Notes: generated from the letters alone by a model not told the origin. Positions 1-26,845 are shown, counted from the first letter of the stretch. The stretch is DNA of 64,000 bases from a virus (IMGVR_UViG_2534681834_000006), one strand, 5' to 3'. Made by a program: numbers and translations.

Positions 1-345
1 GAGCTTCCGGCGTCTCCAGTAGAGTGGCTGACGGATAATGGTTCATGCTACCGGGCTAATGAAACACGGCAGTTTGCCCGGATGTGGGCTGAACCGAAGA
101 ACACGGCGGTGCGGAGTCCGGAGAGTAACGGCATAGCAGAGAGCTTCGTGAAAACGATAAAGCGTGACTACATCAGTGTCATGCCCAAACCAGACGGGTT
201 AACGGCAGCAAAGAACCTTGCAGAGGCATTCGAGCATTATAACGAATGGCATCCGCATAGTGCACTGGGTTATCGCTCGCCACGGGAATATCTACGGCAG
301 CAAGCCAGTAATGGGTTAAGTGATAACAGGTGTCTGGAAATATAG
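1..345 (+). CDS. insD: IS2 transposase OrfB, C-terminal fragment (5' end outside window)
   Basis: Frame open from nt 1; translation ...[15 protein letters not shown]...[15 protein letters not shown]...[12 protein letters not shown]...NRCLEI is the IS3-family integrase-core C terminus. Confidence 0.8.
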
Positions 346-356
346 GGGCAAATCCA
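1..356 (+). mobile_element. IS2 (IS3 family) insertion sequence, right-hand portion; the rest lies upstream of the window
   Basis: Sequence matches the IS2 right end as I recall it, terminating ...tataggggcaaatcca at 356; carries the 3' part of the orfB frame. Confidence 0.8.
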
Positions 357-2681
357 ATAGGTTCCCAGGCTGTTACCCGAATTGGTCAACATGAAATATG
401 TCTTTGAGCCATCGTTTCGGATAAAGAATCCGTAGCTTCCATAGGCAATGCGGAAACCATTTGCATATCTTGAAACGATCTCACCAGTAGCCGTTAAACC
501 GCCGTTGAGATTTCCTCCGGTTATTGGTAATGCGCCGACATCCGTGGCGGTCGGTTTAATGTGCGAACTGTAAATAACATATACCGTTCCATCAGTAAGA
601 CCAGTTGGTTTATCTACTGTGTAATTTGGTGATGTATGAATCGTTACGCTGGCGTTACTGGTATAATCCCACTGGATATTTACACCCGTGGCGTAATTAC
701 CTATTTCAACATAAACATCATAGGTATCACCGGATGTATTCACCCATGCAAAATTAGTAAATCCAACCGATGTCCGTCGCCATAACGCACCAGTAAGACC
801 TTTTGGATTCCCATTTCCCGCACGAAGAACAAGTTCAGATATACCAGCCTGCATAGGGGAGTTAACATTATATCCAGAACTACCAATCAGGCTTATGTAA
901 ACTACGGAACTTGCCTGTGGCATGGTTACAGTTGCCAGCTTGAACCATCCTGCACCACCAATAAAAGACATGGTTGTTGAGTTGATCGTGCCTATAGACC
1001 TTGGAGTTAGCTCAATGTTTTTAGAACCGTCAAACGACACCCCATTTATAGTTCTCGCGGTTTGTAACTTGGTCGCTGTAGCCGCGTTACCGGATGTATT
1101 CTGATTCCCCGCAACGTTAACACCAGGTAAATTAATATTCGCAGTACCATCAAATGCCACACCGCCAATCGTGCGTGCTGTTTTCAATTTCGTCGCGGTG
1201 TCGGCGTTCCCTGTCAGCGCCCCGGTGATCCCACCGTTGAAAGTCTGGCGTGCACTCCATGTGTTAGCCGTGCTCAACAGGGGGATCTTTTCACCGCTGG
1301 TACCGATTTCTCTTAAACCAAGGTATTGGATAACAGCCAGTGTGCTTGTTTTAGCCAGGATATCGCGACCGACTGACGTTAAATCAGTCTGGGAAACAGT
1401 GTCTGTACCGGTAAAGTACGGCAATTTATTTGCGCCAGTCGTAAGGCCAGCGAGCGCTGTTAAAGTTGCATCAAGTGGCTGTTTCCCTGCCAGCGCATTT
1501 GTCATTGTTGTCGCAAAGTTCGGGTCATTGCCAAGTGCTGCTGCAAGCTCATTCAGGGTATCAAGAGCTTCTGGTGATGAGCCGACCAATGCAGATATAG
1601 CAGCCCGTACGTAAGCAGTCGTAGCGATCTGCGTATTGTTTGTGCCCTGTGCAGCGGTAGGTGCAGTAGGGATACCCGTTAATGCAGGGCTTGCCAAAGG
1701 CGCTTTGAGAGCCAGGGCATTGTTGATAGTTGTGCTGAAATTCGGGTCGTTATTGATCGCAGCCGCAATTTCTTTCAACGTATCCAGTGCTCCAGGAGCA
1801 CCATTGATAAGTGCTGTTATAGCTGCCTTAACAAAGGCTGTGTTTGCGATCTGCGTGCTGTTTGTACTTTGCGCTGCCGTAGGCGCGGTTGGCGTTCCTG
1901 TAAGCTCTGGGCTTTCTATTGGCGCTTTGGTATCAGCCAGCTCTTTTACAGACTTAACGGCTTTAGGGGTAGCCGCCATTGTTTCGCTGTCGCTGTTAGT
2001 TGCGCTACTGAGCTGAACTAATCCCTTTTGTGTTGTGCTTGCATCCTGCGCCGTATACTTGCTTTTCGCCAGATCGTAGGCTTTTTTAACCGCCAGCGAA
2101 CTTGCAGCGACATCACTTCTGGTACTGGTTACAGAGTCGGAAATTTCAATGCCTATCGTGAGATCGATGCGGTCGGATACATCTATCATTTCCTGAGTAA
2201 TAGCAGATACGCCAGCAGGGATATTCACCGTACAAACAAGCAGTTCCCCATCTCCTAACTGATATGAATCGGTATAGGTTCTGGCAACAAATTCAGCCGC
2301 ATGAATATGTGACGCGGTATTAACCTGATAAGAATCTTCTCCAAGGAGGTATCTTCCCTTCAGCACAATTGCATATTTCTTACCTGCGCTAAGTGCAAGA
2401 GAAATATCCTTACGCTGCTGAATAGTTACCTGGTAGAATTCACCAATATTCACTGACGCCGCGCCAGCGGTTTTATCACCATCCACTGAGGTGATTAACA
2501 GGTTCATCCCACCGCCAGGCTTCGGCAGGAAACCAGCATAAAATCCAGGGTCAACAATTCCCCTGAATTTTCGGTTTAGCGCGGCTGACAGATATGGTTC
2601 GTGGTATTGCACATCAGCCACCAGAGCCAACGACTCGGGTGATGGGTAAGTAACCGATGTAACAACTGTAACGTCATTCAT
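270..2681 (-). CDS. side tail fibre protein (lambda Stf / P1 S-like); distal end replaced by IS2-derived sequence (chimeric or truncated)
   Basis: ATG at 2681 after an aaggat RBS; about 775 aa with Stf-type segments ([58 protein letters not shown]); the ORF reads across the IS2 boundary at 356 and stops at 270. Confidence 0.75.
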
Positions 2682-2692
2682 CAAGCATATCC

Positions 2693-3127
2693 TTATGCTG
2701 TAGTCGTGTTTATGGCCATAACTGCGGTATATGTTTTGCCCACATACAGCGAGTCTTCCTGGACACAAATAATGGCGATTGGCTTGTTCTCGTTATCCAG
2801 AACAACCAGAGTGTTGAATGGGTAGTTTTTCCCTTCCTGCAACTGGCTTTGATCAAGGTCCATTCGGACAGTAATTATCCCGCCTGAGTAGGTTGGAACG
2901 AGGTCGATGGTGCAAAATTGACTTGTCAGTTCAGCCAGATCGAAAGCCTTTGGCAGTTCTCCAATCTCATAAGTACCATCTCCTTTCTTAGTAACCAGTG
3001 AACTGGTACCGAAAACGGCCTTACTGATTAAAAATCGAGAGCCTTTGTTAATGGACGATTCAGCGCGCCGCTGATAGTAATAGTCCAACAACTGACTCTT
3101 ATAGAGGTTTGTTGAGACGTCAGACAT
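2693..3127 (-). CDS. hypothetical protein immediately upstream of the tail fibre gene (tail fibre operon)
   Basis: 144-aa ORF, stop abuts the tail fibre start; no recognisable motif. Confidence 0.45.
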   Translation of the reverse strand: MSDVSTNLYKSQLLDYYYQRRAESSINKGSRFLISKAVFGTSSLVTKKGDGTYEIGELPKAFDLAELTSQFCTIDLVPTYSGGIITVRMDLDQSQLQEGKNYPFNTLVVLDNENKPIAIICVQEDSLYVGKTYTAVMAINTTTA

Positions 3128-3205
3128 GATTTTCCCTAATCAATGTTGTGAAGCCTCATTGTAAGAGAAGTAACTTGTCACCCCGCCCTACGGACGGGGT
3201 GATTG

Positions 3206-4045
3206 TCAGGCGTCGCTATCCAGCAACAAATCATCTGCGCGTGTGCGATCAAACGTAGGTGTCGCTTTCACAATAGTGCCACCAGGCGTTGCGGTGATCG
3301 GGGCGCTAATCGACGTAACTCCAGTAAGCGAAGTTGTATCCGAAGTTTCAAACCAGCAGAATGCTTTTTCGGTATCAGAAATCTCGTTCAAAGTGATCAT
3401 GTCGGCCTGTTCATTTACAACAACCGACAAATAGAGCGTAAGCCCATCAAACACTATATGCAGTGGCAGTAGAGGCTTTACGAACTGATTAAACTTTCTG
3501 AGAATTTCTTCTGTAATTGCGGACTGATCTATCGTGCCAGTAATACCCATTGTCCTAGCCAGGTCGTTTATGGGAATACTGATCATCCCTCTGGAAGTCA
3601 GAAACATCTCGCCGAATGTGCCGCCGGTAGTCTCCAGTGTGCTTTCTGGTATTAGAACTGTGCCATAGGGATGACGCTCAAGGTCCACCGGTGCATATAT
3701 CGGATCCCATAAAACAGAAATACCGTTAAATTCGCGGTAAATTGTCTGGTTTATAGGGCGTTCAGTTCCCTTAAAGTGGATCTCGTCAAGCCGCTGTTGT
3801 AACAGCATTGGTACGGAAGACGAATTCGACGTTCTGATAGTAAAGAACTGGCCAAGTTCATTTGTCCTGGTCTCCAGATCTTCCTTGCTCATGGAGAAAA
3901 TAGACTTCCGGTTGGTAATTCGCTCCAACCATGGGTCAACAAAAGTGTCCATCATTGACTGAACCAAATCAGCCAATGATTTATAGAGCAATGACTTTTG
4001 CTTAGCTGATGTAAGCCGGTTATTAAACCAGGAACGTTGCATCAC
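3206..4045 (-). CDS. phage tail/baseplate-module protein (function unknown)
   Basis: 279-aa ORF in a tightly packed same-strand operon; start overlaps the upstream stop (ATGA). Confidence 0.45.
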   Translation of the reverse strand: MMQRSWFNNRLTSAKQKSLLYKSLADLVQSMMDTFVDPWLERITNRKSIFSMSKEDLETRTNELGQFFTIRTSNSSSVPMLLQQRLDEIHFKGTERPINQTIYREFNGISVLWDPIYAPVDLERHPYGTVLIPESTLETTGGTFGEMFLTSRGMISIPINDLARTMGITGTIDQSAITEEILRKFNQFVKPLLPLHIVFDGLTLYLSVVVNEQADMITLNEISDTEKAFCWFETSDTTSLTGVTSISAPITATPGGTIVKATPTFDRTRADDLLLDSDA

Positions 4046-5475
4046 TCCTCCTCATACGAAATATTAAAGGTGGAGTTTTCTGTATCCAGATAAACGAAAT
4101 CGAAAAATCCGTTGGACTCATTCCACTCGACAAATTCCAGATAAAAATCGCGGAAATAGCCAAGCGTTTCGATATACGCCCAAACGTCTTTTTTCTTAAT
4201 CAGGATGTACTTACCAACGCGGTTTGGGTCGAAGAAAGCTGAGTCACGCCCGAATTTTGTTTCCAGCGCCGACGTCAGTTCATCGGTCACGTTTTCAATG
4301 GTCAGGCTTGCCGATATCCGCCCGGTGATTGTTATCTTAAATGGTAGTTTTCTGACCTCTTTATAAGAGAATTTCTTGTTCAGCTCATTCGGCACCTTCT
4401 TAAAGGCAGCCAGGATCATTTCTTCAAGTTCTGACTGACTTTTATTTGGATGCCACCCTGAAATAAATATCTTATTGATATTCTGAACATTATAAGCACC
4501 ATCTAATTTCTCTTGCTGGCCCTCACCCCATGCCTTTACCCAGGACAGGCCTGGGATGTTACGCACCAGAAAATACGTATAATCCCCGCCCCATACGACC
4601 TGATCATCATAGGCAAGGTAATATTGTGCACGGTTACGTGTGATCTCCGTTGTTTCAGCATCGGTACCTGCGGTTATAGGTGTCGTTGTCTTAACTGAAA
4701 TCAAATTAGCTAAATTAGCCGCAGAATCGACAGGCGTCAGGTTTTGGCCAGCAACCAGGGTTATATCGCCGTTGGTGCACCATACCTTAAGCGTAATTGT
4801 CGAGCCTTCTGGCGGTATTTGCCCAATTAGCCCATCGCCGAATCGAACCCCCAACTGCTCGGATGGTTTATAAAACTCAACGTAGACCTGGCTTTTACTA
4901 CCGGCTAACCGGAACATAGTGCTGGAAGACCACTGCGTGGTCTTACCATCGGTCGTCACGAATACTTCCAGCTTATAGCAGACAGCAGTGAGAGCCTTTG
5001 ATAACACGACTTCCAGAAATTCTTTGGCTGCCGTAACGGTATATGTCACCTCCTGGATTTCCAACTGTGCCACTTCTACCGTACCGGTGCCGTCAACCAA
5101 CCTGCATACATCCATAGTCATGTAAGGGTACTGGTCGTCAGATATTAAAGGCATGTTTTTGGGGATTACCGCTGGGGCGTCTTCACTTGTGGCAGTGATC
5201 TCAATCATCCCCGATGACGGTGTTGGCTTGGTACCAACGTAACTATTCGTTTCTGCCGCTGCCAGGATAGAGGAACGCCGCGTCGCGGTCGATATAAAGC
5301 CTTCAGCCAGCGCCGCATCGGCATACTGAAAGCACCTGTAGACAATCTGGGTAATAAACAATGTCAGCATCGAGACAAATTGAGAGCCGACAAACTTCGA
5401 CCAGAATGAATCTTTCTCGACAAGCTCTTCAAACTCTGCACGAATACTGTCTTTAGTCGGTGTTGTTTTACTCAT
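4042..5475 (-). CDS. phage tail/baseplate-module protein (function unknown)
   Basis: 477-aa ORF, translationally coupled to its neighbours between sit and the tail fibre gene. Confidence 0.45.
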   Translation of the reverse strand: MSKTTPTKDSIRAEFEELVEKDSFWSKFVGSQFVSMLTLFITQIVYRCFQYADAALAEGFISTATRRSSILAAAETNSYVGTKPTPSSGMIEITATSEDAPAVIPKNMPLISDDQYPYMTMDVCRLVDGTGTVEVAQLEIQEVTYTVTAAKEFLEVVLSKALTAVCYKLEVFVTTDGKTTQWSSSTMFRLAGSKSQVYVEFYKPSEQLGVRFGDGLIGQIPPEGSTITLKVWCTNGDITLVAGQNLTPVDSAANLANLISVKTTTPITAGTDAETTEITRNRAQYYLAYDDQVVWGGDYTYFLVRNIPGLSWVKAWGEGQQEKLDGAYNVQNINKIFISGWHPNKSQSELEEMILAAFKKVPNELNKKFSYKEVRKLPFKITITGRISASLTIENVTDELTSALETKFGRDSAFFDPNRVGKYILIKKKDVWAYIETLGYFRDFYLEFVEWNESNGFFDFVYLDTENSTFNISYEEE

Positions 5476-5831
5476 AGCACCACGTCCTGTGTGATAGTTA
5501 TATCCCTGATACGAATGGATATTTTCAACTTATCAAAAGCATCTCCCTCGGCAACTGACAAGCCAGAAATCGGTATGTCAGGTAAATCTACCGTCAGTTT
5601 TTGCAACAGCATTGCCTCAACCGCAATTTGAACATGCGACAAGTTGGTCGGTTCGTGTTTAAACTGCGGTAAAACATTGCCCCATGACGGATCCCCGTAT
5701 ACCTCACCCTGATAAGTGTTTAGCCACTCATATAAACGAGCGCCCCAGGCCTCCTCCTGGGACTCATACGTTTTTACGCCGGATAACTCCAGCGTCAGCA
5801 AAGGATCAATTTCGTTATTGTTGGCCATCAA
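5472..5831 (-). CDS. hypothetical phage protein
   Basis: 119-aa ORF overlapping the sit stop by 4 nt. Confidence 0.4.
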   Translation of the reverse strand: MMANNNEIDPLLTLELSGVKTYESQEEAWGARLYEWLNTYQGEVYGDPSWGNVLPQFKHEPTNLSHVQIAVEAMLLQKLTVDLPDIPISGLSVAEGDAFDKLKISIRIRDITITQDVVL

Positions 5832-8800
5832 TCAACTCTCGCGTAGTCATTCATCAACGGATCATCAATTGACAGTGGTACCGTGCGCATAACGCCCGGC
5901 TGAGGCGTGCTGACCTTTACGACAGTTCCCTGGCCTTTCGCCGAGTCTTTGGTGTGCTCTTCAATCCTGGCAAGTAATGAGGTCATCTGCGCAAACAGCC
6001 GCTTCGTTTCACCATCAAGTGAAACGGTATTATCAGCCAACTGCATTGTCGGCTTGGCACCGGAACCACCAAGGTCACTAATAACCTGTCCGTCTATCTG
6101 CATACGACCGGTTGGTTGCTGCAAATCGTTGGCGGCAGTCGTCACCTGGGACGTGGAGGCTGGTTCAGGCGCATTATTTTTCCGCATCCCCGGCGAGTTG
6201 CGGAGTTTATCGAATAGTCCATCAATCCCCATTTGTGCGCCGAGTTGGTCAAAGTAACTTGAGTTGCTGGTCACCGGACGCGCCTCTTCAACTGGCATCG
6301 GAGTATCAACATACACATTGCCAGCTGCTGTTGCGGTCCCCTTCCCTCGTGCACGTTCTTCGAGCGTTCCCTGAACGACTTCCCGACGCATACCCCGGCC
6401 ATTCATGAATTTGTTGACCAGATCGTTAACGCCAACAGCATTGCCGATTTTGTCTACCAGACCGCCTTTCTCAAACGGGCTATCACCAGGGGTAAACGCC
6501 AGGCCAGTAGACTGATCGATAACAGCGTTATCAGGCAGTGGTCCCCTCACTCCATATTGCGCCCCACCCTGTGCTCCTGCTCCAGGTGTATAGATTTCAC
6601 CACCTAAATAGCGAGCACGATGAGTATTGACCTTGATCGCGTACTCACGGTTTTCTTTCGATAAGTCACCTGTGCCTTTTTTCCACTTATTGATAGTGCC
6701 AAACCCAGCGTTATATGCAGTGATGGCCTCGTTTAAGTCTCCATTGGCTTGCTTCAGATACTTGCTCATGAGAAGAGCCGCAGCTTCTGCCGATTTCACA
6801 GGATCAAACGATTCACCTTCAGCTAAGCCAGTCTCTTCACGAGCAATCCCCGTGAACTGAAACATTCCCAGAGCACCGGTTTGGGATTTTGCATACGGAT
6901 TACCACCAGATTCAGTTGCAGCAATCGCGTAAAGAGTGCCTTCTGGAAGACCATATTTATTCTCTAGTTCAGCAAAATACGGAGCCAACTTATCGAGATT
7001 TGCCTTACCTTCAGATCCAAGACTTCCGACTTTTACATCCAAGCGGCCATTGTTGTAGGTATCCGCAGCTTTCTGAATGTCATTCCTGGTGCCAGTGGTA
7101 TTAAGCGACGATGATGACGAGCTATTTTGACCAATAGCTTTATCAATTTTCTGCAACGCGCTATTGCCCGTTTCTGCGGCATTTGCATTGATAATCTGAT
7201 TCGCAGTTTCTTTAACTGTTTTATTGCTATCTTTCGCCGTGTCCAGTGCCGCATTTATCACGCGGGTAACAATATTAGTCTGTTTGGCATCGGATTCAGT
7301 TTTAGAATCAGATGTCTCCTGGTGGCTATTAACCGGAGCTTTTAACTCTGGAGCGATTTCTTTCGCATTAGCCTCGCCGATCGGATTGGGTATTTTTGAT
7401 ACAATCATTGCCGCAGGGGTATTTTTAACGGCATCAACCGCTGCATCTAATGCTTTACCAGGTAAATTTTTAACCCCATCCCAAATATTACCAGCCGCCT
7501 CTTTAATGTGTTTCCCTGGGTTCTTAATGAAATCAATTGCACTATCAATTGCATCACTGAAAACCTGTTTCAGGTTATCAACAGTAAAGAAGTCTTTGAT
7601 GGCATCCAGCTTTTCAAGCAGCTTATTAGATGTATCGCTAAACCATGCTGAAACAGCATCACCAATCTTTGCTGTGTAATCTTCGAACTTGGTAGAAATG
7701 GTGTCGCCAAGGTTAGAAATATATGTTTCTAAGTTGGTAATCCCACTATCAATGGCCTGGGCAATACTTTCCGTCGAAAATGATTGCAACATATTGCCGA
7801 TATCCTCAAATCCAAGTGATTTGAGAACCTCACCAATGGCGCTGCTAATACCAGATACCAGTCCCCCCATATCAAGAACATTGGCTAACGTATAAGCGGC
7901 TTTTTGCTGGAATGATGGATCTTGTCCTGATTTAAGCCCAAACGCTCGACGTTGCGCTTCTGTATCATTCCAACCGGTTACCGCATCATAAATACCTCCA
8001 GCCACTGTGCCGACTAAGGGAATTGCGCGTAACGCCCCTTTACCAACTGCCTTTAATCCAAGTTTACCTGCTGCCCGGGCAGCCAAATCTCCACCTTCAT
8101 GGGCGATAGTCTTCTTGCCACCACCGCGTAGCATTCCTACAAGTTTCTTTGCCCCCAGAGCGCCAAAAGCGAGTGCTCCAGCTTTTTTCAGCATGCCACG
8201 CCCCATTAACAACGACGCGACGCCACCGGCCCCCTTCCCTAACAGGCTAAATAGTTTGGACAGCAAGCCGCCCTTCTTTTTCCCGGTGTTTTTGGCTATC
8301 TGATCAAGGGCGCTGAGAATCTTGTCATTGCCCTCTTTAATTTCGCTGGTCTGCTCCTGAAGTTCCTGAACTGTCCGTTTTTGGGTGTTAACCTGAACGA
8401 CATCGGCACTATTTTGCGATTTACGCCTAAAAAAACCTTTTCTACGGCTGTTATCGTCATTGCCACGAATCACATCGGCAATAGACTTTCTGGCACCATT
8501 AAGCGATCCACCAACTTCTTTTGATATCCCGCCAAGCTCCTTCCCTGCTGCCCACAATGGACCAGCAACGGCATAACCTAACGCATCAACGGCACGAGTC
8601 TCTGAAGGGTTACCTATGCCTTCAGCTACTTTTGACAGTTTTTTTAATAAACCTGATTCAGCATTTAGACGCTCATCATCCTCTTTGCGCCTGGCCTTTT
8701 CAGCACGTTCAGCACGGGCATCTTCCGCTGCGGCCTTACTCCCTGACTTTCCAATAAAACGACCACGCGCATCGCGTTGGTTTTGGCTTTTTTGCGCACC

Positions 8801-9517
8801 GCCTTTTTGATCGAACATTTCGCGAGCGTGTTCGGCTGCTTCGGTCCGTTGTGCCTTTATATCCTCTGGTATAGCCTTCCTGCGTCGTTTTTTACCCTTT
8901 GGTGTAGTTGATTTGGCCTGCTGTTCCTGTTGAGCAATGCCCTCCTGAACTACACGAGAAACGTCCCCTAAATTAAGCCGTTTCATTGCGTCAACAATAG
9001 GGTCTACTGATGGCGCATTGGCCACAAAGTCTGGCCGGGAATTTTCGATTGTTCGATTTAATGCCGACACACTGCGAGATACTGGGTCAACCGTTGCAAC
9101 GCGTTCCCCTTTCAAATCACGAGCGAGTTTGACCGTTTCTAACCGCTGTGCTTTAACATCCTCTGTTATTGCCTCTCTTCGTCTATTTGGGGGATTGTGC
9201 GCTGTTGGTGCAGCCTGCTGTGCACGGTTAGTGACTTTGTCCTCCCGTATACGAGAAACGTCCCCTAAATTAAGCCGTTTTATTGCGTCAACAATAGGGT
9301 CCACTGATGGCGCATTGGTCACAAAGTCAGGACGTGAATTTTCGATTGTGCGATTTAATGCCGACACACTGCGAGAGACAGGATCAACAGTTGCAACTCG
9401 TTCCCCTTTCAAATCTTCAACAGCTTCCCGAATACCTGCAAGCTCTTCCAGCTCTTTCGCGCTGGCGGTTTCAACTGTCCTTATAACATCGTCAATATTG
9501 GCGTTTTTTCTTTCCAT
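5828..9517 (-). CDS. sit: tail tape-measure / internal virion protein with soluble lytic transglycosylase domain (P1 Sit-like)
   Basis: 1229 aa; SLT motif ...ESGGNPYAKSQTGALGMFQF...AYNAG; Gly/Ala/Lys-rich central region; internal tandem duplication near the N terminus. Confidence 0.8.
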   Translation of the reverse strand: MERKNANIDDVIRTVETASAKELEELAGIREAVEDLKGERVATVDPVSRSVSALNRTIENSRPDFVTNAPSVDPIVDAIKRLNLGDVSRIREDKVTNRAQQAAPTAHNPPNRRREAITEDVKAQRLETVKLARDLKGERVATVDPVSRSVSALNRTIENSRPDFVANAPSVDPIVDAMKRLNLGDVSRVVQEGIAQQEQQAKSTTPKGKKRRRKAIPEDIKAQRTEAAEHAREMFDQKGGAQKSQNQRDARGRFIGKSGSKAAAEDARAERAEKARRKEDDERLNAESGLLKKLSKVAEGIGNPSETRAVDALGYAVAGPLWAAGKELGGISKEVGGSLNGARKSIADVIRGNDDNSRRKGFFRRKSQNSADVVQVNTQKRTVQELQEQTSEIKEGNDKILSALDQIAKNTGKKKGGLLSKLFSLLGKGAGGVASLLMGRGMLKKAGALAFGALGAKKLVGMLRGGGKKTIAHEGGDLAARAAGKLGLKAVGKGALRAIPLVGTVAGGIYDAVTGWNDTEAQRRAFGLKSGQDPSFQQKAAYTLANVLDMGGLVSGISSAIGEVLKSLGFEDIGNMLQSFSTESIAQAIDSGITNLETYISNLGDTISTKFEDYTAKIGDAVSAWFSDTSNKLLEKLDAIKDFFTVDNLKQVFSDAIDSAIDFIKNPGKHIKEAAGNIWDGVKNLPGKALDAAVDAVKNTPAAMIVSKIPNPIGEANAKEIAPELKAPVNSHQETSDSKTESDAKQTNIVTRVINAALDTAKDSNKTVKETANQIINANAAETGNSALQKIDKAIGQNSSSSSSLNTTGTRNDIQKAADTYNNGRLDVKVGSLGSEGKANLDKLAPYFAELENKYGLPEGTLYAIAATESGGNPYAKSQTGALGMFQFTGIAREETGLAEGESFDPVKSAEAAALLMSKYLKQANGDLNEAITAYNAGFGTINKWKKGTGDLSKENREYAIKVNTHRARYLGGEIYTPGAGAQGGAQYGVRGPLPDNAVIDQSTGLAFTPGDSPFEKGGLVDKIGNAVGVNDLVNKFMNGRGMRREVVQGTLEERARGKGTATAAGNVYVDTPMPVEEARPVTSNSSYFDQLGAQMGIDGLFDKLRNSPGMRKNNAPEPASTSQVTTAANDLQQPTGRMQIDGQVISDLGGSGAKPTMQLADNTVSLDGETKRLFAQMTSLLARIEEHTKDSAKGQGTVVKVSTPQPGVMRTVPLSIDDPLMNDYARVD
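9000..9420. repeat. internal tandem duplication (two units of about 0.3 kb period) inside sit
   Basis: Protein segment ERVATVDPVSRSVSALNRTIENSRPDFV.NAPSVDPIVDA.KRLNLGDVSR occurs twice; DNA around 9020-9120 and 9320-9420 is nearly identical. Confidence 0.6.
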
Positions 9518-12306: not shown

Positions 12307-12828
12307 TTATTTCTTTTCTGGACAAGTAGCATTTGGCTGAATTCGAGTTTCATTATCTTTAGTTGAAATAAGCACAGCAAGCCCCGTTGTAAACTGGCAT
12401 GCTTTACCAACTTGAGTTGAAGTGAACACCTTAGTTCCTTCTTTATAAGTCAGTGAAACACCTTCAACAATTGTTTTATCACTAACCAAAGAACCAGCCG
12501 CTGCACCAAGAGCCGCACCACCAGTACCGCCAGCTACAGCACCCAGTGTCGATGTGCCTTTAACATTATAACCGGCAACGCCCCCAGCAACAGCTCCCAG
12601 TACCGCACCAAATGTCTGTGCCGCTTCTTTATTAGCTTTATTATCAACTTTCACTTTAGCTGGAAGCACAGAGATAATATTGACTGTCTTTGTTTCCTGC
12701 TTCGAATTCAATTGAGCGGTATCATAAACATCGGCAGCATAATCAGCACCGCTAGATTGACACCCAGAAAGAAGAATTGCAGATACAACAAGAGCGCATA
12801 AAGTATACTTTTTAGACATAAGAATCAT
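12307..12828 (-). CDS. outer-membrane lipoprotein with glycine-zipper (SlyB/Pcp-like)
   Basis: Lipobox LLSGC; Gly-zipper GAVLGAVAGGVAGY...GAVAGGTGGAALGAAAGS. Confidence 0.6.
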   Translation of the reverse strand: MILMSKKYTLCALVVSAILLSGCQSSGADYAADVYDTAQLNSKQETKTVNIISVLPAKVKVDNKANKEAAQTFGAVLGAVAGGVAGYNVKGTSTLGAVAGGTGGAALGAAAGSLVSDKTIVEGVSLTYKEGTKVFTSTQVGKACQFTTGLAVLISTKDNETRIQPNATCPEKK

Positions 12829-13109
12829 CCCAGAAAAACAAAAACCGGCGAGAAGTTACCACAAGAACGGAAAGTAAACAAGAATACTCCCATTGACTTA
12901 TATCAATTAATCAACTTTTTATAAGCTATCCCTAACTTATTGTGTATAGCTGAAAAGTCAGAGACAAGTTCACCATCTGCATTATTTCTTAAGTTAATAG
13001 TTTATTGCTAACTTAATTTATGTATCGACTATTGATATCCATCTTAAAGTTACAATATCCATCTGCATTATTTTTCATCACAAATAATATATCTATTGCA
13101 CGACACTAA

Positions 13110-13126
13110 TCTGCTCTAATAAATTT
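13110..13126 (+). promoter_or_regulatory. C1 repressor operator-like 17-mer upstream of the c4/icd/ant promoter
   Basis: tctgctctaataaattt, 15/17 to ATTGCTCTAATAAATTT. Confidence 0.5.
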
Positions 13127-13164
13127 GTATTTTTAAGTCGCGAATGCTATCTTTTTGCATCATA

Positions 13165-13193
13165 TTGACCTTTTAATCGTTCAGGCTTATAGT
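13165..13193 (+). promoter_or_regulatory. sigma70-type promoter for the c4-icd-ant transcript
   Basis: TTGACC - 17 nt - TATAGT. Confidence 0.5.
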
Positions 13194-13299
13194 TTCGCCG
13201 TCGTAGCAAATTCTGCGACCGGGTTTAGCAGCCTGAATACTTACGCGGACAACCGCAGATTTCCGATATTGCGGTATTTTTGTGTCCGTAAACCACGTT

Positions 13300-13400
13300 A
13301 CGCCCGAATTATGGTGGGGCGTGATGGGGAGGCTTCGGCCTGCTGGTTTCGTAAGTGCCAGTCTGCTAACCCCGTCACGTCCTGCCACCTGTTTAGCAGC
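13300..13400 (+). ncRNA. candidate c4-like antisense immunity RNA (approximate bounds)
   Basis: Position between promoter and icd; gtttagcag elements at 13223 and 13391 with a near-complementary ctgctaac at 13365; placement from P1 immI knowledge. Confidence 0.25.
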
Positions 13401-13438
13401 GGGTCGCAGGTTGTTTATCAACTTACGAGGCCGTAACT

Positions 13439-13660
13439 ATGGTTAATGCCAATCCTTGCGCACGCCAAGAATTCATCTGGCGTTTCTATTCCTGCAAAAA
13501 ACACCACTATCACTTCGTCATCGCAGCAACAGAAGACGAAGCACGCTCTCAATTGCCTGATGGCCCCTGCATTTTTACTGCCCGTTTTTCAACTAACTCG
13601 CGCAATTCACTTAGTTACTGGAACCTCCCCTTCTCTGCCGACGTTCAGGGGGTTTTATGA
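13439..13660 (+). CDS. icd: small protein upstream of and overlapping ant (icd-like)
   Basis: 73-aa ORF overlapping the ant start, as in the P1 immI operon. Confidence 0.4.
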   Translation: MVNANPCARQEFIWRFYSCKKHHYHFVIAATEDEARSQLPDGPCIFTARFSTNSRNSLSYWNLPFSADVQGVL

Positions 13661-14700
13661 AAAAACCTCTCGTCACCCGTAATGACATAGCCGAAGCGAT
13701 CGCCCTGCATACTGCCTGTATGCCGACACGGGAGATCCCCGGCGCAATTGCCAACTATTTCATGATAACCAGACGTTTTTATACCCGAACAGATAAGGCT
13801 GTGATCAACAGGCTACTGATAGCCGAGATCAGGGATTATTTGATTGAACAAGGACGTCTACGTTACGCAACGGTGGCAGCAGAAATGAGAAAGGAGGCAC
13901 ATAGAATGACCAGTAATAATTTGAATGTTAAAAAACCAGCATCTGTTGCTTCAGCTACGCCATCACCAGCTGTGAATGTTATCTCCAACACTGGAGACAC
14001 AATCGACAGCCAGACGCTGTTAAAGATGGTCAATGAAGCGCGTAAGTTATGTGGGGAACCAGAGGTTCGGAACAACAAATTCATCAAAAAAATACTCGAC
14101 GAATTAGAAGGTGAGGACGGTTACACAAAAAGTGCAACCGTGCCGCCAGGTGGCGGTACGCCTATGGTTGTCATAACCATGACCTACAAACAAGCCCTGC
14201 GAGTCGCCGCGCGCGAGTCAAAAGCAGTCCGCCGTTCGCTGATCGACAAACTGGAAGAATTGCAGCAGGCAAACTCCCCTGCCCCATCGATCCCCCAAAC
14301 ATTACCAGACGCTCTACGCCTGGCTGCCGAGTTGGCAGAACAGAAAATGCAGTTGGAACAACAGCTGGTGGCCGCAGCCCCTAAAGTCGATTTTGCCGAC
14401 CGGGTATCAGCGGCTAATGGAATCCTGATCGGGAACTTTGCAAAGGTCGTTGGACTTAAGCAAAACGCCCTTTTCTCATGGTTGCGCCAGAACGGCATTC
14501 TCATGGCTTTTGGTGCGCGCAAAAACGTACCGCGCCAACAGTACATCAACGCCGGGTATTTCACGGTGAAAGAAGTGGTGCTGGATGATGAAAATGGCTA
14601 CCAGATACGGCTGACGCCCCAATTAACGGGTAAAGGCCAGCAGTGGTTAACTCGCAAGCTACTTGATGCTGGTTTGTTAAAACCAGTAGCAATAGGTTAA
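13657..14700 (+). CDS. ant: phage antirepressor (KilAC C-terminal domain)
   Basis: C-terminal ...LPDALRLAAELAEQK...APKVDFADRVSAANGILIGNFAKVVGLKQNALFSWLRQNGIL... shared with the next gene. Confidence 0.7.
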   Translation: MKKPLVTRNDIAEAIALHTACMPTREIPGAIANYFMITRRFYTRTDKAVINRLLIAEIRDYLIEQGRLRYATVAAEMRKEAHRMTSNNLNVKKPASVASATPSPAVNVISNTGDTIDSQTLLKMVNEARKLCGEPEVRNNKFIKKILDELEGEDGYTKSATVPPGGGTPMVVITMTYKQALRVAARESKAVRRSLIDKLEELQQANSPAPSIPQTLPDALRLAAELAEQKMQLEQQLVAAAPKVDFADRVSAANGILIGNFAKVVGLKQNALFSWLRQNGILMAFGARKNVPRQQYINAGYFTVKEVVLDDENGYQIRLTPQLTGKGQQWLTRKLLDAGLLKPVAIG

Positions 14701-14777
14701 CAAAAGAAAAAACCTGCCAGCAAACTGGCAGGTTTCTGAGCAGATCGTCCAACCCGATCTGGATCGAGTTAGAAAAA

Positions 14778-14794
14778 TTTGCTCTAATAAATTT
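14778..14794 (+). promoter_or_regulatory. C1 operator-like 17-mer upstream of kilA
   Basis: tttgctctaataaattt, 16/17 to consensus. Confidence 0.55.
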
Positions 14795-14863
14795 CGTTTT
14801 CTAAGTGCAAAGAATCACCATTTCGAGCTGGTGATTGAAGGTTGATGCAAATTTGGAGAAAAA

Positions 14864-15664
14864 ATGCAACAAACATTCAATGCGGATATGAATATATCAA
14901 ACCTTCATCAAAATGTCGATCCTTCAACCACTCTGCCCGTTATTTGTGGTGTTGAAATTACGACCGACCGCGCTGGCCGTTACAACCTTAATGCTCTACA
15001 CAGAGCGAGCGGACTCGGTGCCCATAAAGCGCCAGCTCAATGGCTAAGAACGCTGTCAGCTAAACAGCTCATCGAAGAGCTTGAAAAAGAAACTATGCAG
15101 AATTGCATAGTTTCGTTCGAAGGCCGTGGCGGCGGCACTTTTGCCCATGAATTGCTCGCTGTGGAGTACGCAGGCTGGATTTCTCCCGCGTTTCGGCTGA
15201 AGGTAAACCAGACATTTATCGACTATCGAGCTGGAAGATTACAACCTGCTATTCCGCAGAGTCTCCCTGAAGCTCTCCGTTTGGCTGCCGACCTGGCAGA
15301 GCAAAAGCAACGGCTGGAGCAAAAAATGCTTATGGATGCACCTAAAGTCGAATTCGCCGAACGCGTTGCTACCGCCAGCGGGGTTCTAATCGGCAACTAT
15401 GCCAAAGTGCTCGGCCTGGGCCAAAACTATCTCTTCACCTGGTTGCGTGATAACGGAATTCTGATCGCAACCGGTGAACGCAGGAACGTCCCCAAACAAG
15501 AATACATATCCCGTGGGTATTTCACCCTTAAAGAAACCGTGATCGATACAAGCAATGGAAGCAGGATTTCTTTCACGACTCGTATAACCGGCAAAGGTCA
15601 GCAGTGGCTTATGAAGCGATTGCTTGATGCTGGTGTGCTGGTGCCTGTCGCGGCGACGCGCTAA
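14864..15664 (+). CDS. kilA: KilA-N / KilAC domain protein (P1 KilA-like)
   Basis: 266 aa; C-terminal half paralogous to Ant (LPEALRLAADLAEQK...APKVEFAERVATASGVLIGNYAKVLGL). Confidence 0.65.
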   Translation: MQQTFNADMNISNLHQNVDPSTTLPVICGVEITTDRAGRYNLNALHRASGLGAHKAPAQWLRTLSAKQLIEELEKETMQNCIVSFEGRGGGTFAHELLAVEYAGWISPAFRLKVNQTFIDYRAGRLQPAIPQSLPEALRLAADLAEQKQRLEQKMLMDAPKVEFAERVATASGVLIGNYAKVLGLGQNYLFTWLRDNGILIATGERRNVPKQEYISRGYFTLKETVIDTSNGSRISFTTRITGKGQQWLMKRLLDAGVLVPVAATR

Positions 15665-15693
15665 CAGACGTAGTAAGAACCACCAGCATTGTA

Positions 15694-16539
15694 ATGCTGG
15701 CTAAAGTCACTTTCCTGAGCTGTATAACGATGAGCGATTTTACTTTTTCTGGCTATGAATTGGCCTGCTTTGTAACACACTCCGGTCTATCCCGTAGCGC
15801 CGGGCATATCTTGTCGCAATGTGCAAATCTCGCGGCAACAACCAGTGAATACTTCATTCACAAGCCTCACCGCCTGATCGCGGCAGAAACTGGTTATAGC
15901 CAATCAACCGTCGTTCGTGCATTCCGTGAAGCTGTAAACAAAGGAATCCTGTCTGTAGAGATTGTTATCGGCGATCACCGTGAACGTCGCGCTAACCTGT
16001 ACCGGTTTACACCATCCTTTTTGGCCTTCGCACAACAAGCCAAAAATGCGCTGATTGAAAGCAAATTAAAGATCTCTTCAGCGGCAACCAAGGTTAAAGC
16101 TGTTCTCGCTAAGACATTGGCTTTATTTAATTTTTTATCCACACCCCCATGTCAAAATGATACCCCCTCCCCCTGTCAGGATGACGTGGCAATAAAGAAT
16201 AAGAAGTCACAAGTTAAAAAAACAAAAAGATCAGTTTCCGGCGGTGCCGGAACGACCAGACTCAAAAAATTGACTTCATGGATCGCTGAGGCAAAAGCAA
16301 AGGCTGACAATCTGCGGTTATCCAAAAAACGCGCTCAAAAACATGAGTTCAAGCAGAAAGTAGAGGCGGCAGCGCGGAAATATGCTTACCTGAAGGACAA
16401 GCGTTCTCCTGATATTGGCGGGATATCAAACTTCGATAATCTGCCGCATTGCATGACGGTAAACGAAGCTCTTAATGCGGTTTTAGCCAAAAATAAAGAT
16501 AACGAACAATGGGGTATACCGGCAGGATTCAGAGGGTGA
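15694..16539 (+). CDS. repL: putative lytic replication protein (RepL-like by position and size)
   Basis: 281-aa ORF directly after kilA; assignment from P1 gene order, not motif; alternative ATG at 15730. Confidence 0.4.
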   Translation: MLAKVTFLSCITMSDFTFSGYELACFVTHSGLSRSAGHILSQCANLAATTSEYFIHKPHRLIAAETGYSQSTVVRAFREAVNKGILSVEIVIGDHRERRANLYRFTPSFLAFAQQAKNALIESKLKISSAATKVKAVLAKTLALFNFLSTPPCQNDTPSPCQDDVAIKNKKSQVKKTKRSVSGGAGTTRLKKLTSWIAEAKAKADNLRLSKKRAQKHEFKQKVEAAARKYAYLKDKRSPDIGGISNFDNLPHCMTVNEALNAVLAKNKDNEQWGIPAGFRG

Positions 16540-16589
16540 TAGATTGCTCTAATCTGGAGTCACCTGGCGTTTTCGGTTTGAGGTCGGAG

Positions 16590-16835
16590 ATGCAATCTGA
16601 TTTTTTACAGTTAGCGATCGCTTTTGCAGGATATGTTTGTATTGGCTTCTGTGTATACATGATCAGCCGAAAAATGCTTGTCGATATCGACCGCAAAGAA
16701 CAAGCAGAGGAGATCTTAGTATGGATTTTCTTTGGCGCGGTCTGGCCATTAGGGATCATGTTTGCTGCAACATTTCTTCTGATGTGGATATTCACCCTTC
16801 CAGGTGATTTCTATAGAAAAAAAGCCAGACATTGA
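16590..16835 (+). CDS. small two-helix membrane protein
   Basis: ATG at 16590 after gaggtcggag RBS; hydrophobic stretches IAFAGYVCIGFCVYMI and ILVWIFFGAVWPLGIMFAATFLLMWIF. Confidence 0.4.
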   Translation: MQSDFLQLAIAFAGYVCIGFCVYMISRKMLVDIDRKEQAEEILVWIFFGAVWPLGIMFAATFLLMWIFTLPGDFYRKKARH

Positions 16836-17016
16836 TACAATCGTTGCGGGTGCTTGAGGCTATCTGCTTCAGGCATTACCCGAAAAGCAGATAGAAGAAA
16901 GCCCCAGATAACATTACGCGTCCTGCAAGACGCTTAACATTAATCTGAGGCCATATCTATGCTTAGCATACGTAGATTAGCCTCTTACCGACCAAAAGGT
17001 CAAGGAGAAGCAGGCT

Positions 17017-17172
17017 ATGAAGCAGCATAAAGCGATATTAATCGCTCTGATCGTCATCTGTTTAACCGTCATTGTGACGGCACTGGTAACGAGGAAAGAC
17101 CTCTGCGAGGTACGAATCCGAACCGGCCAGACGGAGGTCACTGTCTTCACAGCCTACGAATCTGAAAGGTAA
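17017..17172 (+). CDS. hok: Hok/Gef-family type I toxin
   Basis: 51 aa MKQHKAILIALIVICLTVIVTALVTRKDLCEVRIRTGQTEVTVFTAYESER after aaggagaag RBS; absent from the ORF track (below its length cut-off). Confidence 0.75.
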   Translation: MKQHKAILIALIVICLTVIVTALVTRKDLCEVRIRTGQTEVTVFTAYESER

Positions 17173-17194
17173 GAGACCTGGCGGGGAGAGATCC

Positions 17195-18532
17195 CATAAG
17201 CGCTAACTTAAGGGTTGTGGTATTACGCCTGATATGATTTAACGTGCCGATGAATTACTCTCACGATAACTGGTCAGCAATTCTGGCCCATATTGGTAAG
17301 CCCGAAGAACTGGATACTTCGGCACGTAATGCCGGGGCTCTAACCCGCCGCCGCGAAATTCGTGATGCTGCAACTCTGCTACGTCTGGGGCTGGCTTACG
17401 GCCCCGGGGGGATGTCATTACGTGAAGTCACTGCATGGGCTCAGCTCCATGACGTTGCAACATTATCTGACGTGGCTCTCCTGAAGCGGCTGCGGAATGC
17501 CGCCGACTGGTTTGGCATACTTGCCGCACAAACACTTGCTGTACGCGCCGCAGTTACGGGTTGTACAAGCGGAAAGAGATTGCGTCTTGTCGATGGAACA
17601 GCAATCAGTGCGCCCGGGGGCGGCAGCGCTGAATGGCGACTACATATGGGATATGATCCTCATACCTGTCAGTTCACTGATTTTGAGCTAACCGACAGCA
17701 GAGACGCTGAACGGCTGGACCGATTTGCGCAAACGGCAGACGAGATACGCATTGCTGACCGGGGATTCGGTTCGCGTCCCGAATGTATCCGCTCACTTGC
17801 TTTTGGAGAAGCTGATTATATCGTCCGGGTTCACTGGCGAGGATTGCGCTGGTTAACTGCAGAAGGAATGCGCTTTGACATGATGGGTTTTCTGCGCGGG
17901 CTGGATTGCGGTAAGAACGGTGAAACCACTGTAATGATAGGCAATTCAGGTAATAAAAAAGCCGGAGCTCCCTTTCCGGCACGTCTCATTGCCGTATCAC
18001 TTCCTCCCGAAAAAGCATTAATCAGTAAAACCCGACTGCTCAGCGAGAATCGTCGAAAAGGACGAGTAGTTCAGGCGGAAACGCTGGAAGCAGCGGGCCA
18101 TGTGCTATTGCTAACATCATTACCGGAAGATGAATATTCAGCAGAGCAAGTGGCTGATTGTTACCGTCTGCGATGGCAAATTGAACTGGCTTTTAAGCGG
18201 CTCAAAAGTTTGCTGCACCTGGATGCTTTGCGTGCAAAGGAACCTGAACTCGCGAAAGCGTGGATATTTGCTAATCTACTCGCCGCATTTTTAATTGACG
18301 ACATAATCCAGCCATCGCTGGATTTCCCCCCAGAAGTGCCGGATCCGAAAAGAAGAACTAACTCGTTGTGGAGAATAACAAAAATGGTCATCTGGAGCTT
18401 ACAGGTGGCCATTCGTGGGACAGTATCCCTGACAGCCTACAAAACGCAATTGAAGAACGCGAGGCATCGTCTTAACGAGGCACCGAGGCGTCGCATTCTT
18501 CAGATGGTTCAACCCTTAAGTTAGCGCTTATG
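17195..18532 (+). mobile_element. IS186 (IS4 family), complete copy with target-site duplication
   Basis: Terminal inverted repeats cataagcgctaacttaagggttg / caacccttaagttagcgcttatg; flanking direct repeat ggagagatcc; target GGGG-N6-CCCC. Confidence 0.85.
17250..18524 (+). CDS. insL: IS186 transposase
   Basis: MNYSHDNWSAILAHIGKPEELDTSARNAG... matches IS186 InsL as I recall it; alternative GTG at 17244. Confidence 0.85.
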   Translation: MNYSHDNWSAILAHIGKPEELDTSARNAGALTRRREIRDAATLLRLGLAYGPGGMSLREVTAWAQLHDVATLSDVALLKRLRNAADWFGILAAQTLAVRAAVTGCTSGKRLRLVDGTAISAPGGGSAEWRLHMGYDPHTCQFTDFELTDSRDAERLDRFAQTADEIRIADRGFGSRPECIRSLAFGEADYIVRVHWRGLRWLTAEGMRFDMMGFLRGLDCGKNGETTVMIGNSGNKKAGAPFPARLIAVSLPPEKALISKTRLLSENRRKGRVVQAETLEAAGHVLLLTSLPEDEYSAEQVADCYRLRWQIELAFKRLKSLLHLDALRAKEPELAKAWIFANLLAAFLIDDIIQPSLDFPPEVPDPKRRTNSLWRITKMVIWSLQVAIRGTVSLTAYKTQLKNARHRLNEAPRRRILQMVQPLS

Positions 18533-18636
18533 GGAGAGATCCCCGCCACTCTTCGTGTGTCAGGTATCCTCAATGCACCCTTTCCTCTCCAAATAAAAAA
18601 GCTCCCGAAGGAGCTTTAAAATACAAGGGATGACTC

Positions 18637-19146
18637 TTAATCCCAATCAATCCAGTTGTAGACGATACGAAGTGACGGGCGCACAGCAGCAGTCACATCT
18701 TCGGTACTAAAGTCGATTGCATCACTGTAGATTTTGCAGTCCAACATTTCAATTGTTGTAGCAGCTTTTGTCACAGCGTTAACCCCGGAAGATTTGGATT
18801 CAGGGGTAGCAGCCATCGTGATATCAACATAGTCCTTCGCCGCAATGCGATCTTTAATGAACTGAAGAATATCGCCTTCGATAGTCTCCACGCACTGGAC
18901 CTGGATTTCCCCGGAGTTACGGATTGGACCGTGCTGGTTGAACTTCACACCATTCGGACCATAGTCCTCCACATCCTCGCGGGTCATTTCAGGAATTTGC
19001 GACGTGCGAACCAGTACGCTGATATCTTCATGGCCTGCAAAAGTGAGCTGGAATTCAGAAGATACCAGTCGTTCGCCTTTGGCCGCGTTGGCAGTATAGC
19101 GGCCCTTAATAAATTTACGGTTTCCCTTAGTGTTATTGTGCCCCAT
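18637..19146 (-). CDS. phage tail/baseplate structural protein (function unknown)
   Basis: 169-aa ORF, last gene of the sheath-containing operon. Confidence 0.45.
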   Translation of the reverse strand: MGHNNTKGNRKFIKGRYTANAAKGERLVSSEFQLTFAGHEDISVLVRTSQIPEMTREDVEDYGPNGVKFNQHGPIRNSGEIQVQCVETIEGDILQFIKDRIAAKDYVDITMAATPESKSSGVNAVTKAATTIEMLDCKIYSDAIDFSTEDVTAAVRPSLRIVYNWIDWD

Positions 19147-19157
19147 ATAAAATCCTT

Positions 19158-19739
19158 TTACTGGAACGCCCGAACAATATCGGAGCTATTATATATCGAA
19201 GAACCGGTCAACTGGAGGTTGACGGTGTTTTTCAGGAAATGCCCATTGCTGTCCCTGGGCGCATCGAGATCGAAACTTATGTCCTGGATAGCGACATCAA
19301 TGATGTTGATCCGGCGACCAATGTTTAGCGTCACACGCTCCGGGATTCGACCACCAATGCTGGCATCTTTAAGTTCCGGGCTAATCATCGCTGACAATGC
19401 GGCGATAGCTCCTGAAACCTCCGTGAATGGGTCAAACAAAGCGATGAAAGTTACTGGCAGCGTGAAAGTCGGCGGTGTTCCCCCCTCCCAAACCATTAAG
19501 CTGTTCCAACGGGCCACCGACGTTGTTTCAGTACCAACCTGCGCAAAACCACTGAAAGCACCAGCAACAGACCCCATGGACATACCGGTAAACGGCGCTT
19601 CCCAATTCTGGGCCATGTTCATTGCTGCCCCCTGGCTGATATATCCGGTAACCTGGTACTGAGAGTTCGTTAAAGTAACTTTCAGAAATGGCGATACACC
19701 GTCAGCCTGGCTGTAAACCCCATAAGGTATAGGTGCCAT
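19158..19739 (-). CDS. phage structural protein (function unknown)
   Basis: 193-aa ORF. Confidence 0.45.
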   Translation of the reverse strand: MAPIPYGVYSQADGVSPFLKVTLTNSQYQVTGYISQGAAMNMAQNWEAPFTGMSMGSVAGAFSGFAQVGTETTSVARWNSLMVWEGGTPPTFTLPVTFIALFDPFTEVSGAIAALSAMISPELKDASIGGRIPERVTLNIGRRINIIDVAIQDISFDLDAPRDSNGHFLKNTVNLQLTGSSIYNSSDIVRAFQ

Positions 19740-19774
19740 TCAAGTTAAAGGCCGGAGTTCTCCGGCCTCCTCCT

Positions 19775-20590
19775 TTAGCCAAGGCGCTTACGGCGCAGTT
19801 TCATTGACTTTTTGCGGGCAAGTTTTGCCGCGCCGGTCTGGGCTTTTCGACGCGCTTTTTTCAGCGCCGATTTTTGAGCCGCAGTCAGACGTTTTTTACG
19901 CAGGCGTTTACGGATGAGTTTGATCTCACCGTTACGAACAACCTTCTTAAATGCTTCAGTCAGCATTTCATCAGAAGTGCCAGCAACAACAAACGCCGCT
20001 TCCAGTTCGTCGCGGTCGTCGCTATCTAAACCAGCGATAGAGGCACCAACATCAGCAGCAGCGTCGTCGTCTTCATCGTCAGCCAGTGCTTCGATCAGGT
20101 CATCATCTACACCGCATGCTGCGAGGAAGTCAGCAACATTTGCCCATGCTTCGTTATAGGCATCGTCCTGTTCTTCTGTAACTTCGGAGTCGTCGTCATC
20201 AGAGATACCAGCGATAGCCTGAACGAAACCATCAAGGGAGTCGAAAGTCAGATCACCGCTATCAGCCCAGGAGAAAACGGCGTCGGCCGCATCACTCAAC
20301 GCATTCTGCATAGCACTTCGATTTGCAGCTTCCAGAATCATCTGGTGCGCCTGTTCGACGGTCCATTCTTTACCATCTTTCCCTTCCAGGATTTGCTCAG
20401 GAGCCGGATCAGATGGAACATTATCGTTAGTCTGTGCCGCCGGTTCCGGATTATTATTAATAACCGGATCTGTTGGCGGTTCGGCGCTTGCTCGGGCAGA
20501 CTCCATCAGCTGCACAGGATCAGAGTTCAAAGCGAAACGGGACAGTCCATTCCCCAAAAATGCCCCGGATTGAAAAAAGTTTTTGCTCAT
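19775..20590 (-). CDS. strongly acidic protein with basic C-terminal tail (scaffold-like or DNA-mimic-like)
   Basis: Asp/Glu runs (DDDDSEVTEEQDD..., ADDEDDDAAAD) then Lys/Arg-rich C terminus. Confidence 0.45.
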   Translation of the reverse strand: MSKNFFQSGAFLGNGLSRFALNSDPVQLMESARASAEPPTDPVINNNPEPAAQTNDNVPSDPAPEQILEGKDGKEWTVEQAHQMILEAANRSAMQNALSDAADAVFSWADSGDLTFDSLDGFVQAIAGISDDDDSEVTEEQDDAYNEAWANVADFLAACGVDDDLIEALADDEDDDAAADVGASIAGLDSDDRDELEAAFVVAGTSDEMLTEAFKKVVRNGEIKLIRKRLRKKRLTAAQKSALKKARRKAQTGAAKLARKKSMKLRRKRLG

Positions 20591-20599
20591 TGTATTCCC

Positions 20600-22189: not shown

Positions 22190-22249
22190 AACTTTCCCTG
22201 TTATGCGCCCCGCACGGGGGCGCTATGTTAAACGGAGAACTTCCCCTGA

Positions 22250-26395: not shown

Positions 26396-26563
26396 CGAAA
26401 GTCATCCTTTATGCTGTATTTTTGAATTTAATTAAAAAAGCTGCATAAAATAATAATGTATGCGTAGATGCTTGTACATAGCATTCTCTGCGTGTTTGGT
26501 TCATTTTGCACGATTGAGAGTTACAAGGAGGGCACAAAAAAGCCCCGTTCAGGGGCATCAGTG

Positions 26564-26824: not shown

Positions 26825-26845
26825 CCGCCCTGTATCCCAGGGATA

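Follow-up and report, generated by a model that had tools for sequence, protein, structure and literature searches.

IS2 insertion in the tail-fibre gene S of a P1-like plasmid prophage from Escherichia coli DEC7

Introduction

Insertion of IS2 is a classical cause of spontaneous mutations in the P1 prophage. From the spontaneous mutants of the Arber laboratory, Sengstag, Shepherd and Arber are said to have described, in the EMBO J in 1983, a 'hot target for IS2 insertion' in this prophage. In P1-like phage-plasmids, the region lydC-cin-Sv'-U'-U-S is recognised as hypervariable, and tfa-type modules that take the place of U and part of S have been described, for example in JL22 (PMC9603915).

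The DNA analysed here, a stretch of 64,000 nucleotides (the window), comprises the initial 64 kb of draft contig AIGD01000003.1 (66,787 bp) from an E. coli DEC7 strain. The window and the contig are 100% identical and gap-free, base 1 of the one being base 1 of the other. A first-pass annotation, made from the sequence alone, had noticed that a tail-fibre gene close to the beginning of the window runs into the terminus of an IS2 element. It had proposed that the distal receptor-binding end of the fibre was replaced, that any invertible host-range segment or chaperone gene once following it was missing on this side of IS2, and that the element may be adsorption-defective, as a locked-in plasmid prophage, or may use an alternative fibre encoded elsewhere. 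Here, we compare this locus with phage P1, with sister assemblies and with relatives in which the fibre gene is uninterrupted.

Results

The ORF scan gave a minus-strand open frame at 270..2768, in which the P1-S-type start MNDVTVV corresponds to the ATG at 2681. The resulting truncated tail-fibre ORF, S::IS2 (270..2681, minus strand; 803 aa), which is supported by the ORF scan, Pfam and the alignment with P1, is made up of 775 native codons (357-2681), 28 IS2-coded codons (273-356) and a stop codon at 270-272. The last native fibre residues, ...NSGNSLGTY, reach down to base 357. The start at 2681, the encounter with IS2 at 356/357 and the termination within IS2-coded codons are as originally annotated, with 28 codons counted against the approximately 29 claimed. 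Residues 1-518 are 94.6% identical to P1 gpS, and Pfam detected Phage_fiber_2 repeats and a Gp34_trimer domain in the ORF. The best-scoring Phage_fiber_2 repeat (aa 215-254; 1920..2039, minus strand) is part of the P1 'a/b' repeat region, in which 219-bp repeats occupy 1489-1707 and 1711-1929.

The position of the gene is also that of S in P1, downstream of sit, pmgA, bplA, gene 16, R and a conserved late promoter. Directly upstream of S, in the same late operon, lies the intact gene R (2693..3127, minus strand; PF26881), encoding the 144-aa P1 tail-fibre R protein, and upstream of it a near-identical homologue of the P1 late promoter LPs (3158..3176, minus strand), which drives R-S. The gene shares with that of P1 gpS a homologous N-terminal constant part (Sc) and its place after R and gene 16/bplA/pmgA/sit; the whole distal receptor-binding part is not found in one frame with them, since IS2 ends the frame at codon 775 of 1394.

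Bases 1..356 of the window (plus strand) represent the 3' end of IS2, an insertion sequence of the IS3 family (IS2 nt 973-1331), the contig beginning inside the repeat. They match records annotated as InsD/IS2 at 98.6%, and the full IS2 copy found on the sister contig AIGE01000007.1 at 99.2%, with 359 aligned columns for the 356 window bases, which includes 3 small indels. This part contains the C-terminus of InsD (orfB; 82-345, plus strand), of which only the final 87 codons fall in the window, and its right inverted repeat finishes with ...GGGGCAAATCCA at 356. The adjacent bases, 357..361, are one copy of the IS2 target-site duplication, ATAGG on the plus strand and CCTAT on the gene strand. 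The element is oriented antisense to S. The full copy on AIGE01000007.1 has the length of IS2 (1331 bp, for about 1331 bp expected), is bounded by the imperfect terminal inverted repeats TAGACTGGCCCCC... and TGGATTTGCCCC..., and lies between two direct copies of CCTAT, of which the uninterrupted allele has a single one. The two overlapping transposase frames, orfA and orfB, are represented by an HTH_Tnp_1 gene (121 aa) and an HTH_21/rve/rve_3 gene (301 aa), both present on AIGE01000007.1 as well as on a second sister contig, AIGC01000010.1. The match to the full 1331-bp copy, together with the inverted repeat, upholds the assignment of bases 1-356 to IS2.

The exact 803-aa fusion protein occurs on five contigs that belong to a series of consecutive draft assemblies at NCBI (AIGA, AIGC, AIGD, AIGE and one more), for which the source names of the deposited proteins are E. 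coli DEC7A and DEC7E; judged by accession order, AIGD would be DEC7D. Its recovery from five sister contigs means that the junction did not arise as an artefact of a single assembly. No record among 72,556 plasmids and 5,426 complete E. coli genomes spans the IS2-fibre junction. Three of the five fusion contigs read further into or across IS2, and one of these, AIGE01000007.1 (DEC7E), crosses the entire element, a 1331-bp IS2 with CCTAT on either flank. Its order is fibre 5' part, ...GGGAACCTAT, followed by TGGATTTGCCCC...(IS2, 1331 bp)...GGGGGCCAGTCTA, followed by CCTATAATAATTTAAGG... of the fibre 3' part. In pSvP1_F, where the target is uninterrupted, the sequence is ...GGGAACCTATAATAATTTAAGG..., with CCTAT once. 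In a simple insertion the IS2 left end would adjoin CCTAT-AATAATTTAAGG of the fibre 3' part, of which AATAATTTAAGGCCGCTTATC is an internal stretch.

We considered the possibility that IS2 is absent from the fibre gene and that the end of the window contig was built of chimeric reads from other IS2 copies. The location of the IS2 part at a contig end and its 3 small indels are typical of low-quality or collapsed repeat ends. However, the same exact fusion ORF was recovered from separate assemblies, three of which read into or across IS2, the 5-bp target duplication in AIGE01000007.1 is perfect, and a complementary ORF joining IS2 to the fibre 3' part exists (see below). An assembly artefact of this kind is therefore exceedingly improbable.

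Past IS2, AIGE01000007.1 contains the other 619 codons of the fibre, a gene for tail-fibre assembly (Caudo_TAP), a cin remnant, lydC, lydA, lydB, hdf and darA, and this far flank shows 0 mismatches (substitutions) to pSvP1_F 33561-26738. The distal 619 codons include the Mu-S-like distal domain and the C-terminal glycine-rich domain. The first-pass proposal that the distal end of the fibre was replaced is not borne out by this contig, which has a simple insertion with a 5-bp repeat, and in which the remaining fibre is 100% identical to the uninterrupted allele. Nothing is visible past IS2 in the window because the contig breaks in the IS2 repeat, and not for a biological reason. Within the window, neither the receptor-binding half nor the chaperone gene is present, and to this extent the annotation was right about the window side of IS2. 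The inspection of the far IS2 end that it had recommended, carried out on the sister contig AIGE01000007.1, recovered the fibre 3' part and the chaperone gene; the cin-like invertase that was also sought there was not found intact, but as a cin remnant only.

The chaperone gene past IS2 in AIGE01000007.1 differs from that of pSvP1_F by three 1-bp indels within 46 bp (15737-15783), which break the frame and leave 79 aa versus 136. These clustered indels in DEC7E may be sequencing errors in a low-quality region, or they may be a second lesion of the fibre module.

The distal part of the split gene is called as a 630-aa ORF with a TTG start inside the IS2 left end. This IS2-left-end::fibre-3' ORF has been deposited from DEC7A and other genomes, and a 589-aa version of it with an ATG start is found under two accessions, one of them named DEC7E. 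The IS2-left-end::fibre-3' junction is represented by five accessions in the EHV/EHW block, a number that fits one per DEC7 genome. Based on the sister assemblies and the paired accession numbers, we inferred that the genome from which the window derives would also contain the fibre 3' part. A further 'phage tail protein' of the distal cluster, 631 aa long and found on 92 contigs, begins at an internal Met located just 11 codons before the IS2 site and is free of IS2 sequence; annotation may often split the long fibre gene, or the gene may carry another upstream lesion that is common.

A different continuation was found on AIGC01000010.1, which over 12326-22412 runs from the fibre 5' part through IS2 into chromosomal ynfB/speG/ynfC-H and has no CCTAT repeat on the far side. 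Such an arrangement would be expected if IS2-IS2 recombination had deleted or moved the distal fibre, the chaperone gene and the lysis genes, for example by chromosomal integration near ynfB, and the window contig, which stops in IS2, offers no direct contradiction of this rearrangement. Nevertheless, the IS2-ynfB junction is 100% identical in the complete chromosomes of the porcine ETEC strains CV839-06 and ETEC1731, and thus belongs to a resident IS2 that is an obvious spot for a mis-join. In addition, the reciprocal IS2-left-end::fibre-3' junction is deposited under five accessions, and the AIGE contig spans a clean simple insertion. On these grounds we consider the loss or relocation of the distal genes unlikely. 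The simplest reading of the AIGC contig would be a draft mis-join through the resident chromosomal IS2, and in some strains it may reflect an IS2-mediated plasmid-chromosome cointegrate or rearrangement.

The uninterrupted S encodes 1394 aa both in pSvP1_F (NZ_MN510446.1), whose nucleotide sequence is 100% identical to window positions 357-7135, and in NZ_CP116245.1, a 93-kb IncY P1-like plasmid that is 98-99% identical to the window; the 1394-aa protein is also recorded on dozens of other contigs. In both plasmids, the start of a 136-aa Caudo_TAP chaperone gene (PF02413, E 2.6e-20) overlaps the stop of S. A chaperone gene directly after the fibre stop is therefore present in the uninterrupted relatives and beyond IS2 in AIGE01000007.1, and absent from the window. 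The intact protein begins with the P1 Sc part, up to approximately aa 454, which is followed by Phage_fiber_2 repeats and by a segment (aa 707-807) with homology to residues 1015-1116 of T4 gp34 and residues 265-339 of Mu S. After additional repeats come a distal domain similar to Mu S/S' (aa 1036-1193) and, last, a glycine-rich domain (aa 1203-1391). IS2 cuts the protein at aa 775, inside the gp34-like domain, which spans aa 706-783 of the intact protein according to Pfam or aa 707-807 according to the PDB alignment, and of which the window retains the part encoded at 357..566 (minus strand). All parts expected to bind the receptor are downstream of the cut.

The in-frame ORF that runs from the IS2 left end into the distal part raises the question of whether the 775-aa proximal stump and the distal fragment (630 aa from TTG or 589 aa from ATG) could join non-covalently into a working two-piece fibre, as in T4, so that infectivity would be kept. 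The break does fall in a domain homologous to part of gp34, the T4 proximal half-fibre protein. However, it lies within this domain (aa 775 of 707-807) and not at its boundary, neither a ribosome-binding site nor a promoter is evident ahead of the distal ORF, no docking partner is known for the distal fragment, and there is no precedent for such a fibre in P1 or Mu. A functional fibre assembled from two pieces thus appears very improbable.

At 1308-1333 (plus strand), the window contains a cixR site for Cin recombination that is identical to P1 cixR in 26 of 26 positions and is located at the same codon position as in P1, at the border of the constant (Sc, approximately aa 1-454) and variable parts of S, and upstream of IS2 in the gene. 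With up to 6 mismatches allowed, no second cix site was detected in the window, pSvP1_F, AIGE01000007.1 or the sequence labelled L002, and tblastn with P1 Cin gave no match in the window. The relatives and AIGE01000007.1 keep only cin codons 1-74 or so, frameshifted, between lydC and the chaperone gene, a stub labelled by PGAP 'recombinase, frameshifted; incomplete'. Neither component of an invertible host-range switch of the type known from P1, P7, D6 and, with Gin, Mu was thus recovered, i.e. an intact cin or two inverted cix sites flanking alternative Sv/U sets, and the uninterrupted relatives have one fixed fibre end and one chaperone gene. The orphan cixR is a fossil of the invertible C-segment, and the lineage has lost cixL, the Sv'/U' set and nearly all of cin. 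Loss of an invertible host-range segment at the IS2 insertion does not agree with these observations, as the relatives without IS2 in S have no such segment and the sole cix site is upstream of IS2.

A search for a second fibre gene by tblastn, with the intact fibre, the chaperone and P1 S, U, U' and Sv' as queries, returned only the S locus in the window, and only S and its adjacent chaperone gene in pSvP1_F and NZ_CP116245.1. The suggested alternative fibre encoded elsewhere has accordingly no candidate in the window or in the complete relatives. The remaining morphogenesis ORFs of the window match those of the uninterrupted relative in length, and the fibre is the sole lesion visible in the 64 kb. 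Single-base indels relative to pSvP1_F were found at window positions 24064, 45393 and 49053, two of them in genes (VRR-NUC and a 420-aa pmgS-like gene). They were considered as possible further pseudogenes and rejected, since all three lie in A/T homopolymer runs and are probably draft sequencing errors.

In pSvP1_F a separate IS2 is present in sit, at the equivalent of window positions 7131-7135, with the duplication CCAAT; sit of the window (5828-9517, minus strand; 1229 aa) is intact. A rearrangement linking the two insertions, at which a common duplication would have hinted, was discarded because the duplications differ, CCTAT in S and CCAAT in sit. Two independent IS2 hits have occurred in tail genes (S in the DEC7 clone, sit in SvETEC) of one very young P1-like lineage of porcine ETEC O157, the backbone of which differs at about 1 in 8000 bases. 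Selection for the loss of virions, as part of a domestication from phage to plasmid, or a region of the tail operon that is hot for IS2 could account for this instead of chance, a tentative idea that we hold to be doubtful; with n=2 events the pattern is indistinguishable from chance. The 5' part of sit also contains two 168-bp direct repeats (8951-9118 and 9248-9415; 92% identical, 297 bp apart), which give the tape-measure/transglycosylase protein a duplicated N-terminal segment.

Several other features distinguish the elements of this group. An IS186/IS421-type element is located at window positions 17179-18548 (the IS itself at approximately 17195-18532), with the inverted repeat CATAAGCGCTAACTTAAGGGTTG and a 10-bp duplication, GGAGAGATCC, of a palindromic GGGG...CCCC target. 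In pSvP1_F the element occupies exactly the same site in the opposite orientation, which implies either an independent insertion into a hot spot or a flip in place. A 13-kb stretch of P1-like backbone (28919-41909) is absent from pSvP1_F and present in NZ_CP116245.1, where its equivalent contains rdgC, dmt, tRNA genes, a dnaB-type helicase gene and baseplate genes; its loss from pSvP1_F seems to have taken place at IS91-linked joints. Finally, positions 26497-28747 and 51029-57088 jointly cover a replication module with a RepB-family initiator, 40% identical to the IncY RepA of NZ_CP116245.1, and a type I restriction-modification cassette, hsdRSM, which takes the place of P1 tciABC.

Discussion

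Our analysis indicates that, very probably, a single 1331-bp IS2 split gene S in a P1-like (punavirus) plasmid prophage of DEC7, leaving its distal half beyond IS2, with the consequence that particles would not adsorb while the plasmid persists. In this course of events, IS2 jumped into the coding region for the variable, distal half of S, generating the CCTAT duplication and splitting the gene after codon 775 of 1394, with the other 619 codons placed directly past the element. Late transcription from LPs would then yield R and an 803-aa stump consisting of the baseplate-proximal Sc and following residues with a 28-residue IS2 tail, and devoid of a receptor-binding tip. With 1.3 kb of antisense IS2 in between, the distal fragment and the chaperone gene would be separated from their promoter and start codon. 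Particles that are formed would be expected to fail in adsorption, as the first-pass annotation reasonably supposed, and with replication, partition and immunity unaffected, the element could persist vertically as a plasmid. Particles of P1 and Mu fibre mutants of this kind do not adsorb, and judged from the sequence, non-adsorbing particles combined with plasmid persistence are the probable outcome here as well.

As the distal part has kept 100% identity with the intact allele, the insertion is recent, and a long 'locked-in' history cannot be claimed for the element. S::IS2 is an ordinary IS-disrupted prophage gene, and we found no description of this insertion in the literature on pSvP1_F and the DEC7 strains. 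Cargo for resistance, defence and virulence travels on P1-like phage-plasmids, and lesions such as S::IS2 bear on whether a given one can still spread as a virus. For annotation and for judgements on mobility, we suggest treating the element in the window as a plasmid prophage with a defective fibre that is probably inherited by vertical transmission alone; a label that implies a novel or exchanged receptor-binding end would not be appropriate. The locus also calls for caution in the interpretation of draft genomes: where a gene appears to break off at an IS in such a contig, its remainder may simply be found on the following one.

Among known systems, a close parallel is provided by the IS2 mutants of P1 from the Arber laboratory. 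In both cases a chromosomal IS2 enters a resident P1-type prophage and is reported (P1) or predicted (window) to abolish a lytic function while the plasmid is kept, and the insertion has the canonical form of 1331 bp with a 5-bp duplication. The Arber mutants arose in laboratory lysogens, whereas the window comes from a natural DEC7 lineage and the target is a variable part of S that is not that of P1. With P1 itself (NC_005856; gpS/gpS'), the window shares the LPs-R-S operon, the 94.6% identity over the first 518 residues and an identical cixR at the same codon position. In contrast to P1, its lineage has only a stub of cin and lacks cixL and the Sv'/U' set. S is 987 aa long in P1 and 1394 aa in the window lineage, where the distal module is different and has a glycine-rich end, and the fibre gene is followed by a lambda-type Caudo_TAP chaperone gene instead of U. 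A nearly identical relative, pSvP1_F, a P1-F hybrid plasmid of porcine ETEC O157 (SvETEC), differs from the window in the backbone by 6 substitutions and 3 homopolymer indels in approximately 49 kb; it departs from the window in having an uninterrupted S, the IS2 in sit instead, and IS91-linked insertions with F-plasmid and enterotoxin genes. Module swaps of the JL22 type leave the fibre gene intact, whereas in the window a swapped module has additionally been split by an IS.
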